DNA of 64,000 nucleotides from Escherichia phage CMS-2020a. The number at the start of each line of letters is the position of its first letter. Position 1 is the stretch's first letter. The stretch lies in the sequence record CP053388.1; one strand, given 5' to 3'. A model generated the notes under the pieces. That model did no database searches. It was not told the origin of the DNA and was given only the letters and a program-made list of their open reading frames with translations. This document shows, piece by piece, positions 25,920 to 60,324 of the stretch. The translations under genes were made by a program, and so were the position numbers.

Positions 25920-27494
25920 TCACTCGTTCTCTTGAGTAGATGAGTCCCCATTCCCTCGGGGTTGATCTTGCCCGCTTTCTTGGGCTGCACCACGATAATA
26001 AGTAAGTACTGACTTATTTTCAAGGGTATTTAGATCATTTTTTGGAGGAAAATTCAAGAGATCTTTATCAAATTCCTTTTTCATCGCCTCAGTAATGTTC
26101 GGGAAAATCTTCTCAATAAGCATTTCCATCTGGTGACGACGTACAGAGTCCGGTGCCTGAAGTAATGACAGTTTCTCGGCAACAGAAAATTCATCAGTAA
26201 GGCCACGAATATCGAAACTTTCTGGATACGCAATTAAAGAGTGGTCTTCGTCCAGATCTGCCCCCATCCATTTCGCAACCAGTAGCATGATTTGGCGTTC
26301 AGCCCTTTCCAGACGCTCTGCTTTTGTGACAAGCAAGCTATTTACACGCTGGAAGTCATACATTTTTGCGGCACCAGATGAATTATCGATTCCCTGTGCG
26401 TTGTCCTGCTTCGTTCGCTCACCAGCTACACCAACTGAATGGTAGATTTCGTTAATCACCGTCTTAATCGTAGTGATGATCATCTGAGCTTGTTTCGGGT
26501 CTGGTGACAGATAAAACGGCTGGTTTCCACCTTCAGAATCGTAGGTGAAGACTCGCTTTGTGCCCATTTCAAGCACTTTAGTGTGGTTTTCATCACCAGG
26601 TAAAAGCGACTGTACCGGTATAGCCAACTGGCTAAATGTCTGATCCTGAATAATGGCATCAAGGTTTGACAGATAGTTTGCAACCGCACGATCAAGATAA
26701 GCGATATCATCGATCAACGATGGGCTGAAATACGGTGATTCACTTTCTCCAATACAATCAACAGGAAACACAGGAACTACGCCGAGATTATGCTCACCGC
26801 TATCCTCTAAAATAACTTTTGCCTGACGGCGACCTGCTCCACCAGCGCCCTTCTTCACTTCCTCACGGAACAGATACCACTCGTTTTGTGTCCACAGACG
26901 ATAACGTTGGTATTCCTGACCTGTAGAAGTAAAAGGATCTGCGTCATCACGAGCGACTTCCACAATTAACGCCCACAACATATTCCCGTCGTCGTCCCAT
27001 GCCACATCCAGCATTTGCTGAGGTGAAATCCAGTAGGCGTAGGCGCGAGCATCTTTCTTTTTCTCGTCAGCTACTGACTCAACATCACCACTCATCGTGC
27101 TATCGACAACAACCCATATGCGACCGTAAATAGACGACTGCAAATCAATAGCGGCCATAAATGAGTCAATAGAGGCATTCTGGCGAGTCGCACGTTTCCA
27201 GAAATTGCGGATCTGCTCTGGTGCCTCTTCGATATTTCTATGAATGTCTTCTTTAAAGAGATATTTGTTGATGAGGTTTACCACCTCACGAGTGTGGTTG
27301 AAGCGATAAGCACGTTCAACTCGCTCCTTAAACTCCTGATCTCCCTCTTTAAAGTAACGAAAGATATTGTCTGTAAACCAACCACGCCCGCCAGCGTAAG
27401 TGCTGGCGAGGAAGTCCCAATGTTCTTTTTTCTTTTCGTATTCCGGGTGGCGTCGCGCCACCAGATCCTTAATTTGTTTGTCGTTCAATTCCAT
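25920..27494 (-). CDS. portal protein
   Basis: 524 aa, immediately downstream of terminase large subunit. Confidence 0.75.
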   Translation of the reverse strand: MELNDKQIKDLVARRHPEYEKKKEHWDFLASTYAGGRGWFTDNIFRYFKEGDQEFKERVERAYRFNHTREVVNLINKYLFKEDIHRNIEEAPEQIRNFWKRATRQNASIDSFMAAIDLQSSIYGRIWVVVDSTMSGDVESVADEKKKDARAYAYWISPQQMLDVAWDDDGNMLWALIVEVARDDADPFTSTGQEYQRYRLWTQNEWYLFREEVKKGAGGAGRRQAKVILEDSGEHNLGVVPVFPVDCIGESESPYFSPSLIDDIAYLDRAVANYLSNLDAIIQDQTFSQLAIPVQSLLPGDENHTKVLEMGTKRVFTYDSEGGNQPFYLSPDPKQAQMIITTIKTVINEIYHSVGVAGERTKQDNAQGIDNSSGAAKMYDFQRVNSLLVTKAERLERAERQIMLLVAKWMGADLDEDHSLIAYPESFDIRGLTDEFSVAEKLSLLQAPDSVRRHQMEMLIEKIFPNITEAMKKEFDKDLLNFPPKNDLNTLENKSVLTYYRGAAQESGQDQPRGNGDSSTQENE

Positions 27495-58089: not shown

Positions 58090-58110
58090 GATAGGTAAAC
58101 ACTTACTTAC
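58090..58110. promoter_or_regulatory. motif B palindrome
   Basis: gataggtaaacacttacttac at RNase H stop. Confidence 0.5.
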
Positions 58111-58700
58111 TATTTATTATAAACAAAACCAATATCTTTCTTGTGAGGCATATCTGCTGCTGAAAAAGCTGCGATCTTCGCGAGTCGATCACATATTTCA
58201 TTTTCACGATGCCCGGCGTGACCTTTAACCCACTTCCAGCGAACATTATGTCGACTTGCGGCCTCATCCAGACGCTTCCACAGATCAACATTCTTTACCG
58301 GTTTTTTGTCAGAAGTCATCCATCCATTGCGTTTCCACCATTTCATCCACTGTGTCATGCCGTTTTTCAGATACTGGCTATCAGAGTGCAAAATAACGTT
58401 GCATGGATATTTCAAACGCTCCAGCCCGATAAGTGCCCCCATCATCTCCATGCGGTTATTGGTGGTGCTATGAAAACCATCTGAGAACTCGCGTTCCTCT
58501 CCACGATACTGAAGAACGATACCGTAACCGCCCGGGCCACCCGGATTTTTAAGGCAAGAGCCATCACTGAAGATTTTCACGGTTTTAAGCTGGGGATTGA
58601 ACTCTACGACAGGCGTTGTGGGATTGGTGCGGGGAGAATTTTTGTTTTTGGCTTTTTTGCGAGTTTTCGCTTGCGATCGGGCTGGTGTCTTCGTCGTCAT
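58110..58700 (-). CDS. ribonuclease HI
   Basis: [41 protein letters not shown] motifs; start MTTKTPARS with AGGAG RBS. Confidence 0.85.
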
Positions 58701-59283
58701 ATAAACTCCTGAATCAAGCGCCGCGCCGATTTTTCCTCGCGCGTGCGCACACGCGTGCGTGTTAATAATTATTAAAATAAACAAATTACTTCCCAGAACA
58801 GGTTTTTATAAACCTGAACTGAACGAACGAAGTGAGTGAAGTTCACCTCGAACGAAGTGAGAGGTTGTCTTTTCAGGTAATACTCTCCCAGGGAGGTGAG
58901 TATAAAAATCTCTCACCAACCTGGTCGTTTCATAACCTGAAAAGTTATGGTCTAAGTCTACTGCCAGCTTAGACTTGGGAAGTTATGGATGACAGCACCC
59001 CAGAACCGAGATCTTCCCACACTTTATGAAGGGGAGTACTGGATTCAACCTCTCGAAACACCCCAGACTCGACAATCATAAAGTGACCCTTGTCTCTGCT
59101 CACTTTGGTTCCCCCTTCCCCGACACCTAAACGGCACCAGTTCTACGCTGGTAGTGAGCTTTTTTTAAACCTGACGCCAGTGACGCTTACCCCCACCCAT
59201 CAGGTCGAGTCTCCAGTCTACGACTGGAAACTATCAGATCTTAGCACTTACAATTCACTTTATGAATAGTTTGTACTTATCTA

Positions 59284-59538
59284 TCATTGTGATTGATTAT
59301 TTTCTCTACCATGTAGTTGAACATTCAAGGCAAACACCTCATTGATCAACTCACCTAAAAGCTGTTCAACAAGTTCGCGATGCTCGCCAAGATGCAAGCA
59401 CTTAATTGCCCATTCGTACAAGTTGAAAGCCTGCTCACGATCTTTCATCATTTCACGAGCCTGGGCCAGAAAATCGCTCTCTACGAGCGCAACGACATTA
59501 GTCGGGTATGACATGTTGGTTTCCTTAAAGTGGTTCAT
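59284..59538 (-). CDS. hypothetical protein
   Basis: 84-aa ORF. Confidence 0.45.
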   Translation of the reverse strand: MNHFKETNMSYPTNVVALVESDFLAQAREMMKDREQAFNLYEWAIKCLHLGEHRELVEQLLGELINEVFALNVQLHGRENNQSQ

Positions 59539-59620
59539 AAAATCGATTTTAAAGCGTCTGGGAAGGGGTTCTAGTGGATTCTGTAGTGATGTTCAGGTCT
59601 GGAGTCTCTGATACAAAGCT

Positions 59621-59677
59621 GCCTGCTTCCGTATATTAATAATTAATATGTAGTTATTTATATATACAGAAGCAGGC
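59621..59677. repeat. 55-bp near-palindrome, copy 2
   Basis: gcctgcttccgtatat ... atatacagaagcaggc. Confidence 0.8.
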
Positions 59678-59699
59678 TAATTACAGACGCCAGAACAAA

Positions 59700-60293
59700 C
59701 TAAGCAGCCTTCTTTGATGGTCTTTTTTTCCTGATCACATTCGCAGGATCATACCCTCCCAGACTTTTCATGACGTCCAAAGGGATCTTGCTTATAGAGT
59801 GCCCAGCGTCCTGACAGAATCCTCGAAAAACAACGAGCATACTGCCACCTGGGTTGATGTTTACTTCTACCTGACCCAGATTTACGTCAGGCTCGACAAA
59901 CGCTACGCGGCCACCAGACAGAATAATCGTCTCATTCGCACACTCTGTTGCACGCTCATACCACTTTGTATCTAGGGATTGAGGAATTAGCATCACTGTT
60001 GTAACTCCACGAGCCTGCTCACGTATAGCCGCATCAATCCAGGGGGAGATTTTGGAGTAGGGTGGATTGAGGAAGGCAATTGTACCTGGCTGTCCCCATT
60101 CAGATTTCAAAGCATCACGCTCAACGCCTATGAAATTAGGCAGCTTTGCATTGTCCTTGTTGCAGGCAACGTCAACATCAAATGTCACTCCAAGATAACG
60201 TTGAATGGCAGAAAACAGCCAGTCAGGTGTTCTCCAGAGGTCACGAAGAGAGTTGTCGCGCTTTCGCTGTTTGATTTTTTCGGCTGCAATCAT
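59700..60293 (-). CDS. phage-type DNA N6-adenine methyltransferase (Dam family)
   Basis: WRTPDWLF, DVDVAC, FLNPPY motifs. Confidence 0.7.
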   Translation of the reverse strand: MIAAEKIKQRKRDNSLRDLWRTPDWLFSAIQRYLGVTFDVDVACNKDNAKLPNFIGVERDALKSEWGQPGTIAFLNPPYSKISPWIDAAIREQARGVTTVMLIPQSLDTKWYERATECANETIILSGGRVAFVEPDVNLGQVEVNINPGGSMLVVFRGFCQDAGHSISKIPLDVMKSLGGYDPANVIRKKRPSKKAA

Positions 60294-60303
60294 CTTCTTT
60301 CTC

Positions 60304-60324
60304 GATAGGTAAGTATATACCTAT
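60304..60324. promoter_or_regulatory. motif B palindrome
   Basis: gataggtaagtatatacctat. Confidence 0.5.

Follow-up and report, generated by a model that had tools for sequence, protein, structure and literature searches.

The DNA examined here is a stretch of 64,000 nucleotides (nt) from the Escherichia phage CMS-2020a record CP053388.1, and is called the window below. According to its phage matches and its plasmid matches in PLSDB, the window is part of a phage-plasmid of the SSU5/pHCM2 type. The gap between an open reading frame (ORF) of 76 amino acids (aa) and the RNase HI gene is located at 58701–59283, and the RNase HI start is at 58700. We conclude, with a probability near 0.9, that the region 58775–59233 (minus strand) within this gap is a stand-alone gene for a highly structured non-coding RNA (ncRNA) of about 455 nt. 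As in stand-alone ncRNA genes in general, the element has its own promoter, is more abundant than its neighbours in transcripts, and has a covarying structure, the transcript ends being placed by inference. An earlier analysis made from the letters alone (the sequence-only reading) proposed a structured ncRNA, or a packaging or replication signal, and assigned no strand. The ncRNA proposal is strongly supported by covariation and transcription, and the RNA is read from the minus strand. The element represents a new RNA family, found in phage-plasmids that are common in the clinic; some relatives may have a sister type at this locus.

Conservation and secondary structure

An alignment was made of 61 distinct sequences spanning the small ORF, the gap and the RNase HI gene (rnhA). 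In the block 58795–59210, the column identities are 0.92–0.998 and no periodicity is found, whereas the coding parts of the alignment show third-position variation. In pairwise comparisons of relatives with the window, the RNA core is 88–95% identical where the small ORF and rnhA have DNA identities of 73–78% and the flanking spacers 49–81%. The core is more conserved than the flanking coding genes, and is not the poorly conserved filler that the sequence-only reading had considered as another outcome. The region was also described there as free of ORFs. Mechanically, ORFs of 44–59 aa exist in it, and none of them is conserved or shows codon periodicity: the variable sites of the element are spread over the three codon phases as 64/74/75, and no reading frame is common to the clades. 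The frame of a 44-aa ORF with a GTG start (CYRAN_81) is interrupted or displaced in L057, L070 and the JZ38 clade. With no shared frame and no three-base periodicity, the element does not behave as a small-protein gene. CYRAN_81 (window 58969–59103, minus strand) is annotated as a hypothetical protein and is called a 'moron' in PMC9928086; it is a spurious call inside the RNA.

The folding energy of the element corresponds to z scores of −3.45 and −3.23 on the two strands, and 0 of 100 shuffled sequences fold as well. Folding better than shuffled sequences is not persuasive by itself. Using RNAalifold with 35 sequences, 127 pairs were obtained, and 29 of them show compensatory changes. A second set consisted of 25 sequences from two clades that are about 68% identical (SSU5-like and Cronobacter JZ38-like). 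For the 134 pairs predicted in this set, 95.0% of the 3,294 cells are standard pairs, compared with 36–49% in slid controls, where the 3′ partners were displaced by 1–3 columns. Changes on both sides are found in 34 pairs (3–7 in the slid controls), and the covariation score is 0.236 (about 0.05 in the controls). The observed values were attained by 0 of 500 shuffles. This structure was derived from the same 25-sequence alignment as was scored, and hence two other sequences were used as a held-out check. In L225 (a Buttiauxella plasmid, 86% identical), 96.3% of the pairs are kept with 6 new double changes, and in L226 (a Logan assembly, 81% identical), 89.3% are kept with 7 new double changes. 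Compensatory changes in relatives, which the sequence-only reading had named as a check on its proposal, are therefore present.

The strand was assigned from the same data. By consensus energy, the minus strand (−236 kcal/mol) is favoured over its reverse complement (−199 kcal/mol). G–U pairs make up 11.4% of the cells, and 12 pairs are G–U in most sequences. When the same pairs are read on the plus strand, only 84.7% are canonical. These features indicate that the RNA is encoded on the minus strand.

The anatomy of the RNA is given below, in window coordinates. The 5′ end was placed from a conserved −10 element, and the 3′ end was placed after the terminal hairpin and the U-rich tail.

58775–59233, minus strand: whole RNA gene, about 455 nt, from the conserved block and the structure; both ends are inferred, each within about 10 nt
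59212–59228, minus strand: P0, the 5′-terminal hairpin UCCAGUC-GUA-GACUGGA, hypervariable in sequence, the stem always kept
59094–59209, minus strand: 5′ domain, from the covariance model R1 and covariation
59207–59209/59094–59096, minus strand: closing helix of the 5′ domain
59168–59206, minus strand: long hairpin of the 5′ domain, with invariant GGGUGGRGG...CACUGGC loops
59153–59159/59098–59104, minus strand: second helix of the 5′ domain, enclosing the invariant ACCAGCG and GGGGAAGGGGGAACCAAAG
58860–59090, minus strand: central domain, with a weakly supported closing helix (59086–59090/58860–58865) around four hairpins
59020–59085, 58976–59019, 58950–58974 and 58869–58944, minus strand: the four central hairpins, the last being the nested inverted repeats of the sequence-only reading
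58788–58858, minus strand: 3′ domain, with two CUCAC[UUC]GUUCG copies (58849–58861 and 58824–58836) and the terminal hairpin
58793–58822, minus strand: terminal hairpin, corresponding to the palindrome caggtttttataaacctg, with covariation in helix 18
58772–58792, minus strand: U-rich tail GAAGUAAUUUGUUUAUUUU, probable 3′ end or termination region, U-rich in most clades
58727–58761, minus strand: element between the RNA and rnhA, outside the RNA core, consisting of a purine–pyrimidine tract (58738–58761) and then CGCGAGG with an A-run

In the relatives, P0 has at least seven unrelated stem sequences, and each forms a near-perfect hairpin. Examples of the two stem strands are GCUUCCGGA/UCCGGAAGC, GCUGGCAGAU/AUCUGCCAGC, GAUUUCGA/UCGAAAUC, GCUUCCAGC/GCUGGAAGC and GUCAGUU/AACUGAC. 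The G-rich strand has a 1-nt indel in the SSU5 clade, where it escapes a 20-nt G-rich pattern. In the 5′ domain, CUGG (59173–59176) and CCAG (59148–59151) might pair as a pseudoknot. In the central domain, helices 8, 10, 12, 13 and 15 contain 7, 3, 1, 5 and 3 pairs with changes on both sides, respectively, and 94–100% of their cells are paired.

The two CUCAC[UUC]GUUCG copies of the 3′ domain are the gaacgaagtgag repeats of the sequence-only reading as they appear on the RNA strand, and both main clades have them unchanged. Distant members have CUCGCUNCGCUCG in place of CUCACUNCGUUCG, and the form CUCGC[UNC]GCUCG is found. Judged from the sequences, the switch from A–U to G–C is consistent with a mini-hairpin of two base pairs (bp), RC[UNC]GY, which would have a UNC triloop with a free middle base. 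The second copy in L434 is a perfect 6-bp hairpin, GGAAAC[UUC]GUUUCC. The 3′ domain can pair in several mutually exclusive ways, among which covariation cannot choose because the partners are invariant. Helix 17, in which RNAalifold paired the second repeat with GAGGUGA, was rejected, as it is unsupported by the JZ38 clade with a deletion at that place.

All the features named in the sequence-only reading are found in the sequence, apart from an incorrect range for one of them and an incorrect label for another. According to a sequence check, the palindromes caggtttttataaacctg and ccagtctacgactgg are located at 58799–58816 and 59214–59228, respectively. cgaacgaagtgag is present in two exact 13-nt copies at 58824–58836 and 58849–58861. 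The pair cttttcaggt/acctgaaaag (58869–58878 and 58935–58944) encloses ggtgag/ctcacc (58895–58900 and 58912–58917). The gaacgaagtgag repeats, described as tandem, are two direct repeats at a distance of 25 nt from start to start. The alternating purine–pyrimidine tract was placed within 58786–59283; it exists at 58738–58761, outside that range, in the interval that separates the element from the start codon of RNase H. The CGCGCGAGG(C)AAAA motif in the 58727–58761 element is conserved even in clades without rnhA at this position. This element is length-polymorphic, with an A-run of 5–10 and a tract of 15–29 nt, and L068 has one ACACGC unit more than L070.

Promoter and transcription

Two features upstream of the RNA are relevant to its transcription.

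59238–59246, minus strand: extended −10 element TGcTAAGAT (TGnTAnnnT), 6–8 nt before P0
59273–59284, minus strand: copy of an operator-like motif, ATAGATAAGTAC, overlapping the stop codon of the small ORF, about 25 nt upstream of the −10 element

The −10 element is present at the aligned place in all 52 distinct upstream contexts, and has the extended form TGnTAnnnT in 45 of the 52. The spacer around it is only 49–77% identical between relatives. The operator-like motif belongs to a dispersed set. With up to two mismatches, the motif ATAGGTAAGTAC has 18 sites in the window against 2.7 expected, and the maximum in 100 shuffles is 7. The sites include 1450–1469, 25998–26017, 58091–58102, 59273–59284 and 60305–60324, and they often form back-to-back palindromic pairs. 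The three sites checked in this respect (59273–59284, 58091–58102 and 60305–60324) are located at gene junctions; the copy at 58091–58102 is just after the rnhA stop. The motif at the position of 59273–59284 is conserved both in loci with an RNA of the window's type (type A) and in loci with the possible sister type (type B, described below). By its sequence, ATAGGTAAGTAC looks like a dispersed operator of a phage regulator. The C1 operators of phage P1 are such dispersed regulator operators.

Published transcription data are available for the relative Cyrano, which is pLF82 of E. coli LF82; reads of this strain with Cyrano are in GEO GSE154648. Cyrano is 97% identical to the window at the RNA region, and the CYRAN_81 call lies wholly inside the element. 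CYRAN_81 is among the genes expressed in the lysogen, 12-fold over the prophage background (Misson et al., PMC9928086). In LB, the values for CYRAN_81 are 113 and 121 fragments per kilobase per million (fpkm; mean 117), and those for CYRAN_80 (the small ORF) and CYRAN_82 (RNase H) are 9.5 and 8.4, respectively (PMC9928086 S1 Table). As log2(fpkm+5), the CYRAN_81 values are 6.9 in stationary LB, 9.2 in B1, 6.9 in B6, and 8.6 and 10.3 in macrophages at 1 h and 6 h; its neighbours have 2.6–5.8 under the same five conditions (PMC9928086). The macrophage level is about 1,260 fpkm, a rise of about 11-fold. The reads inside the element are 10–40 times those of either flanking gene in all five conditions (12–14 times in LB, and as much as about 40 times in macrophages), and the element is thus transcribed as its own unit. 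The rnhA reads are about 14-fold below those inside the RNA. CYRAN_81 responds to the conditions partly in parallel with the LexA-like CYRAN_98. The RNA sequencing that the sequence-only reading had suggested is therefore available for a relative, and transcription is found.

The small protein gene, relatives and distribution

Two genes enclose the gap.

59284–59514, minus strand: small ORF, 76 aa, phrog_5343, directly upstream of the RNA; the stop is at 59284–59286 and the start is most likely at 59514
58110–58700, minus strand: RNase HI gene (rnhA; Pfam RNase_H, E = 9.8e-45), a frequent and not obligatory neighbour of the RNA

Among the IMG/VR loci found via the small ORF, 60 of 60 have the RNA just downstream. 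More distant homologues of the small ORF are each followed by a gene-free gap of about 520–860 nt. The family comprises 43 clusters among 5.8 billion proteins, and all of them are in enterobacterial phage-plasmids. No Pfam match was found for the small ORF. Its predicted model is a three-helix bundle with a predicted local distance difference test score (pLDDT) of 79.5, and no fold match to it is significant. A Rop-like protein, by analogy with ColE1, was considered and rejected: the best PDB match has E = 6.8, and the sequence search gave only designed proteins at E = 0.08. The small ORF is a candidate partner of the RNA, linked to it by position only.

The covariance model R1 of the 5′ domain matches the window at 59091–59211 with 132 bits. 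When the homologues of the small ORF are followed, progressively more divergent RNAs are reached in the order L225, L226, L436, L435 and L434, which have 139, 124, 54, 26 and 22 bits, respectively. In the R1 alignment with the distant members, which was fitted to the model itself, 98.1% of the cells are paired compared with 31–49% in slid controls, and 16 of the 28 pairs changed on both sides. A further R1 match has 39.5 bits (E about 1e-8) and is located at 399–484 of L277 (IMGVR_UViG_3300011830_000001, 99 kb). Only the 5′ domain is matched: the GGGUGGAGGAUAGUGUCACUGGC hairpin is present, and a shorter helix carries ACCAGCG. All bases of the stems differ there with the pairing kept, and a 40-nt insertion is missing. 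The contig is otherwise unrelated, and the match lies near large ORFs resembling structural genes (580 aa and 337 aa). No relatives of this homologue were found in phage or plasmid collections.

The gene after the RNA varies. It is RNase HI in the window and in SSU5, a 103-aa ORF in JZ38, a 183-aa ORF in L434 and a Tad2-like gene in L436. In L225, the RNA is followed by convergent OLD/TOPRIM and UvrD-like genes, which form a Gabija-like pair. Since rnhA is not next to the RNA in four lineages (the JZ38 clade, L225, L434 and L436), the conserved unit is the small ORF and the RNA, followed by a variable accessory slot. This slot is a hotspot of variable genes (L225:3395–5231; L436:3598–3912; SSU5, L002:3656–4390). 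The L225 slot holds a UvrD-like helicase gene and an OLD-like TOPRIM/AAA gene on the opposite strand, and the Tad2-like gene in the L436 slot is of the anti-Thoeris kind. In SSU5, the gene of the antirepressor Ant is located about 1 kb further downstream, after rnhA.

In three relatives, a different large non-coding region follows the homologue of the small ORF at the same position (L227:2726–3437, which equals L228, and L433:2726–3296). We call these regions type B. Their small-ORF homologues are 70% and 53% identical. The type B regions gave no match to the window RNA by nhmmer or covariance model and no Rfam match. The fold is strong, with −167.9 kcal/mol (z = −5.6). The identity between L227 and L433 is 57%, and changes on both sides are found in 20 of the 80 consensus pairs. 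Type B thus appears to be a second large structured RNA in the same slot. BLAST searches of plasmids and phages with the L227 type B RNA and with the L277 homologue gave nothing useful.

Several candidates were set aside. L229, a contig of Logan SRR8137545 with the complete module, at first resembled a divergent member. Almost all its C positions are T, so that it is apparently a C-to-T, bisulfite-like assembly, and its gene does not yield the indexed protein; it was excluded. L230 contains a run of N and was excluded from the alignments. The pattern matches L282 and L307 are due to chance. In a metagenome scan with the loop-motif pattern, among the matches listed, 14 are ordinary SSU5-like copies, and the other 106 are chance matches in GC-rich DNA without the flanking stem.

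The phages matching the region are Salmonella phage SSU5, the Escherichia phages PhiR41_1, CMS-2020a and Cyrano, and several Klebsiella phages. In PLSDB, 687 plasmids match, and nearly all of them are non-mobilizable. Their host genera are Klebsiella, Escherichia, Enterobacter, Salmonella (pHCM2 of S. Typhi, NC_003385), Citrobacter, Cronobacter and Shigella. In E. coli, the element is present in 232 of 5,426 complete genomes (233 records), and PGAP annotates nothing under the match in these records. In a search of genome contigs with the RNase HI protein, all the matches were rnhA genes of chromosomes, and no relative of the element was found.

The genes around the element are all on the minus strand and form a long operon for nucleotide metabolism and replication. 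The order is NrdAB, ThyA, DHFR, 3′–5′ exonuclease, Dam, the 76-aa ORF, the gap, RNase HI and a TerB-like gene. The phage also encodes a replisome with DnaE, a DnaB-like helicase, a ligase and FEN.

Possible roles of the RNA, and a nearby repeat

The RNA corresponds to no described family. Rfam 15 (4,227 models), a search named in the sequence-only reading, gave no match at the gathering threshold in the whole window. A permissive search of 58500–59700 (E up to 10) gave only noise such as a hepatitis C virus stem-loop and microRNAs, and the best hit has E = 0.081 and 21.5 bits, where the threshold is 56. Nothing was obtained in Rfam either with six loci of divergent homologues or with the type B RNA. 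No tRNA or tmRNA was found by ARAGORN in the stretch examined, and in the literature on ncRNA in pHCM2, SSU5 or phage-plasmids no description of the element was found. The kind, a stand-alone structured ncRNA of a mobile element, is familiar. Such a size and complexity without relatives are not.

For its function, we favour the following reading with low confidence; together with the ncRNA identity it has somewhat less than an even chance. The RNA would act in trans in the plasmid or lysogenic state, either by itself as a stable fold or within a ribonucleoprotein. The many invariant loops and junctions suggest a fixed three-dimensional fold and a specific macromolecular partner, and hence a role in trans. 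The 76-aa protein would be the first candidate partner, because its gene is the only one always inherited with the RNA. The promoter may be controlled by a phage regulator via the operator-like motif upstream of the −10 element. This reading fits the architecture of a stand-alone gene, the abundance in the lysogen, the invariant loops and junctions, and the exclusive linkage to the small protein.

Simple antisense pairing is less likely, because no complementary site was found in the window. When the window was searched with the invariant CACUUCGUUCG and the G-rich motifs, for complementary as well as identical sites, only the RNA itself was found. Phage-plasmids and satellites express immunity RNAs in the lysogen (c4 of P1/P7, CI RNA of P4 and sar of P22), which are antisense RNAs of 69–77 nt with defined complementary targets. 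The present RNA resembles them as a lysogen-expressed ncRNA of a temperate phage, and in SSU5 an antirepressor gene of the same orientation follows downstream of it. However, it is about six times larger, no complementary target was found for it in the 64-kb window, and Ant is absent from the lineage of the window. The RNAs of type III toxin–antitoxin systems (ToxI-like) also differ: they consist of tandem repeats of about 34–36 nt in an array, with the gene of an endoribonuclease toxin after it. The present RNA has no such array and only two direct repeats of 13 nt, spaced by 25 nt, and the downstream gene varies.

Several points weigh against a trans-acting RNA of this kind. Both ends of the RNA are estimates from the sequence, and a simple terminator scan did not call the U-rich tail with the 3′ hairpin, which is not a canonical terminator. 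The alternative pairings of the 3′ domain would suit a cis-acting switch equally well. The libraries used for Cyrano gave separate plus- and minus-strand profiles, and the stranded mode of featureCounts for CYRAN_81 is unstated (PMC9928086). The small protein has no recognisable RNA-binding fold in its predicted model, and its ORF is about 12-fold less expressed than the RNA in the lysogen. The search for complementary targets was confined to 64 kb of the element of about 108 kb.

A wider reading is tentative and clearly less probable than the trans-acting RNA as such. The SSU5-type phage-plasmids would carry a hitherto undescribed module of the 76-aa protein gene and a large ornate RNA, with at least two sequence-unrelated RNA types (type A in the window; type B in L227, L228 and L433). 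The RNA would be the core of a new ribonucleoprotein, or a catalytic or assembling RNA. It would serve immunity, anti-defence or copy control in the lysogen, be induced in macrophages, and be neither a simple antisense regulator nor a leader.

It is unlikely, though the best of the remaining alternatives, that the RNA is a cis-acting leader or attenuator. In this case, the folded RNA made from a constitutive internal promoter would end in a conditional terminator gating the variable accessory genes (rnhA, Ant, TerB-like, Tad2-like, Gabija-like), and its large 5′ part would sense a protein, metabolite or RNA signal. The RNA is indeed on the same strand as, and directly upstream of, the following genes, and the reads drop about 14-fold from the RNA to rnhA. 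GAGG can pair with the upstream CCUC or with the downstream CUUC/CCUC, ACUUC occurs twice against a single GAAGU, and the CGCGCGAGG-A(n) element follows the RNA in all clades. However, neither the same downstream gene nor the same pathway follows the RNA, as would be the case for a gene-specific leader: RNase HI, the 103-aa ORF, the Gabija-like genes on the opposite strand and the Tad2-like gene alternate there. The next genes in L225 are convergent, and thus nothing is left to gate. Between the RNA and the start codon that comes next lie an AT-rich spacer of 25–45 nt and another structured element, and known leaders of such a size are rare.

An RNA primer or R-loop origin is more improbable. 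Such a transcript would hybridise persistently with the downstream AT-rich DNA, and the phage RNase HI encoded next to it would cut it back to a primer for DNA synthesis, as in ColE1 RNA II or the ncRNA origins of mycobacteriophages. In the phages Alma and LadyBird, regions of 400–500 bp expressing ncRNA are required for prophage maintenance (PMC7157519), and these regions are a precedent. Like the cluster A mycobacteriophages (RedRock, Alma and LadyBird; PMC7157519), the present phage lives as a plasmid, and a region of about 400–500 nt that overlaps spurious ORF calls is transcribed in the lysogen. Unlike it, those phages have no Rep and carry the RNA next to parABS, whereas a RepB-family initiator and a nucleotide-metabolism operon are found here. 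The likeness to ColE1 RNA II/RNA I consists of a structured plasmid RNA of several hundred nt with a G-rich segment, which is invariant here, and of RNase H, which is involved in ColE1 and is often encoded next to the RNA here. The DNA after the 3′ end is AT-rich, the transcript is present in lysogens, and the hypervariable 5′ hairpin could set specificity as the RNA I/RNA II loops do.

However, the ColE1 scheme departs from the locus in several respects. No plus-strand promoter-like site for an antisense RNA I is present in the 5′ part of the RNA (a nearby site at 59225–59254 points away), and no match to RNAI (RF00106) was found. The RNA looks terminated at a hairpin with a U-tail and would not run on into the DNA, and rnhA is missing next to it in the four lineages listed above. 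ColE1 replicons need no initiator protein of their own, whereas a RepB-family initiator is annotated here, at 1092–2306 of p4_0.2, a near-identical plasmid; on the circular map, its distance to the RNA is about 17.6 kb. At the RNA locus, no switch or inflection is seen in the cumulative GC skew. With a full replisome, RNase HI has an ordinary role in primer removal. The distance of the initiator gene and the GC skew likewise speak against the replication signal suggested in the sequence-only reading.

A ribozyme or a self-assembling ornate RNA is slightly less probable again. It might act in self-cleavage or in processing of the operon transcript, or form a homo-oligomeric particle as for ROOL and GOLLD. 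The RNA resembles ROOL, GOLLD, OLE, HEARO and raiA in its length of several hundred nt, its many helices, its invariant junctions and loops, and its strong covariation. It belongs to no known class and is carried by a phage, as ROOL and GOLLD are on phages and prophages, and in some relatives the locus is taken by another large RNA, which is apparently unrelated. No known ribozyme motif was detected, and no Rfam model of these classes matches. The distribution is narrow, namely Enterobacteriaceae phage-plasmids with the linkage to the 76-aa ORF, and one distant match.

A purely DNA-level signal (a packaging site, a partition site or an iteron origin) is very improbable in spite of the direct repeats (2 × 13 bp) and palindromes, because the stems are kept by compensatory changes with strand-specific conserved G–U pairs, the 13-bp repeats behave as RNA mini-hairpins with A–U to G–C covariation, the region is transcribed as its own unit, and the adjoining genes (Dam, exonuclease, DHFR, ThyA, NrdAB and RNase H) include no terminase or par gene, so that neither the position nor the DNA-level constraint of a cos or pac site is found and the packaging signal of the sequence-only reading is not supported.

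Bacteria and phages have few structured RNAs that exceed 400 nt and show strong covariation, and each new class so far has pointed to unusual biochemistry. The present element is unannotated, or mis-annotated as a 44-aa hypothetical protein, and in lysogens it ranks with the more abundant transcripts of the phage-plasmid. Antibiotic-resistance genes have been demonstrated on phage-plasmids (PMC9600943). The RNA offers a testable handle on the control of lysogeny, copy number or host interactions by phage-plasmids, and the covariation-supported model is ready for probing and cryo-electron microscopy.

Between the Dam stop and the start of the small ORF, a long inverted repeat (GCCTGCTTC ... GAAGCAGGC) at 59621–59677 flanks a 39-nt AT-rich palindromic core. 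This repeat is the source of the microRNA-like chance matches in the permissive Rfam search, and it may be a terminator or an operator.

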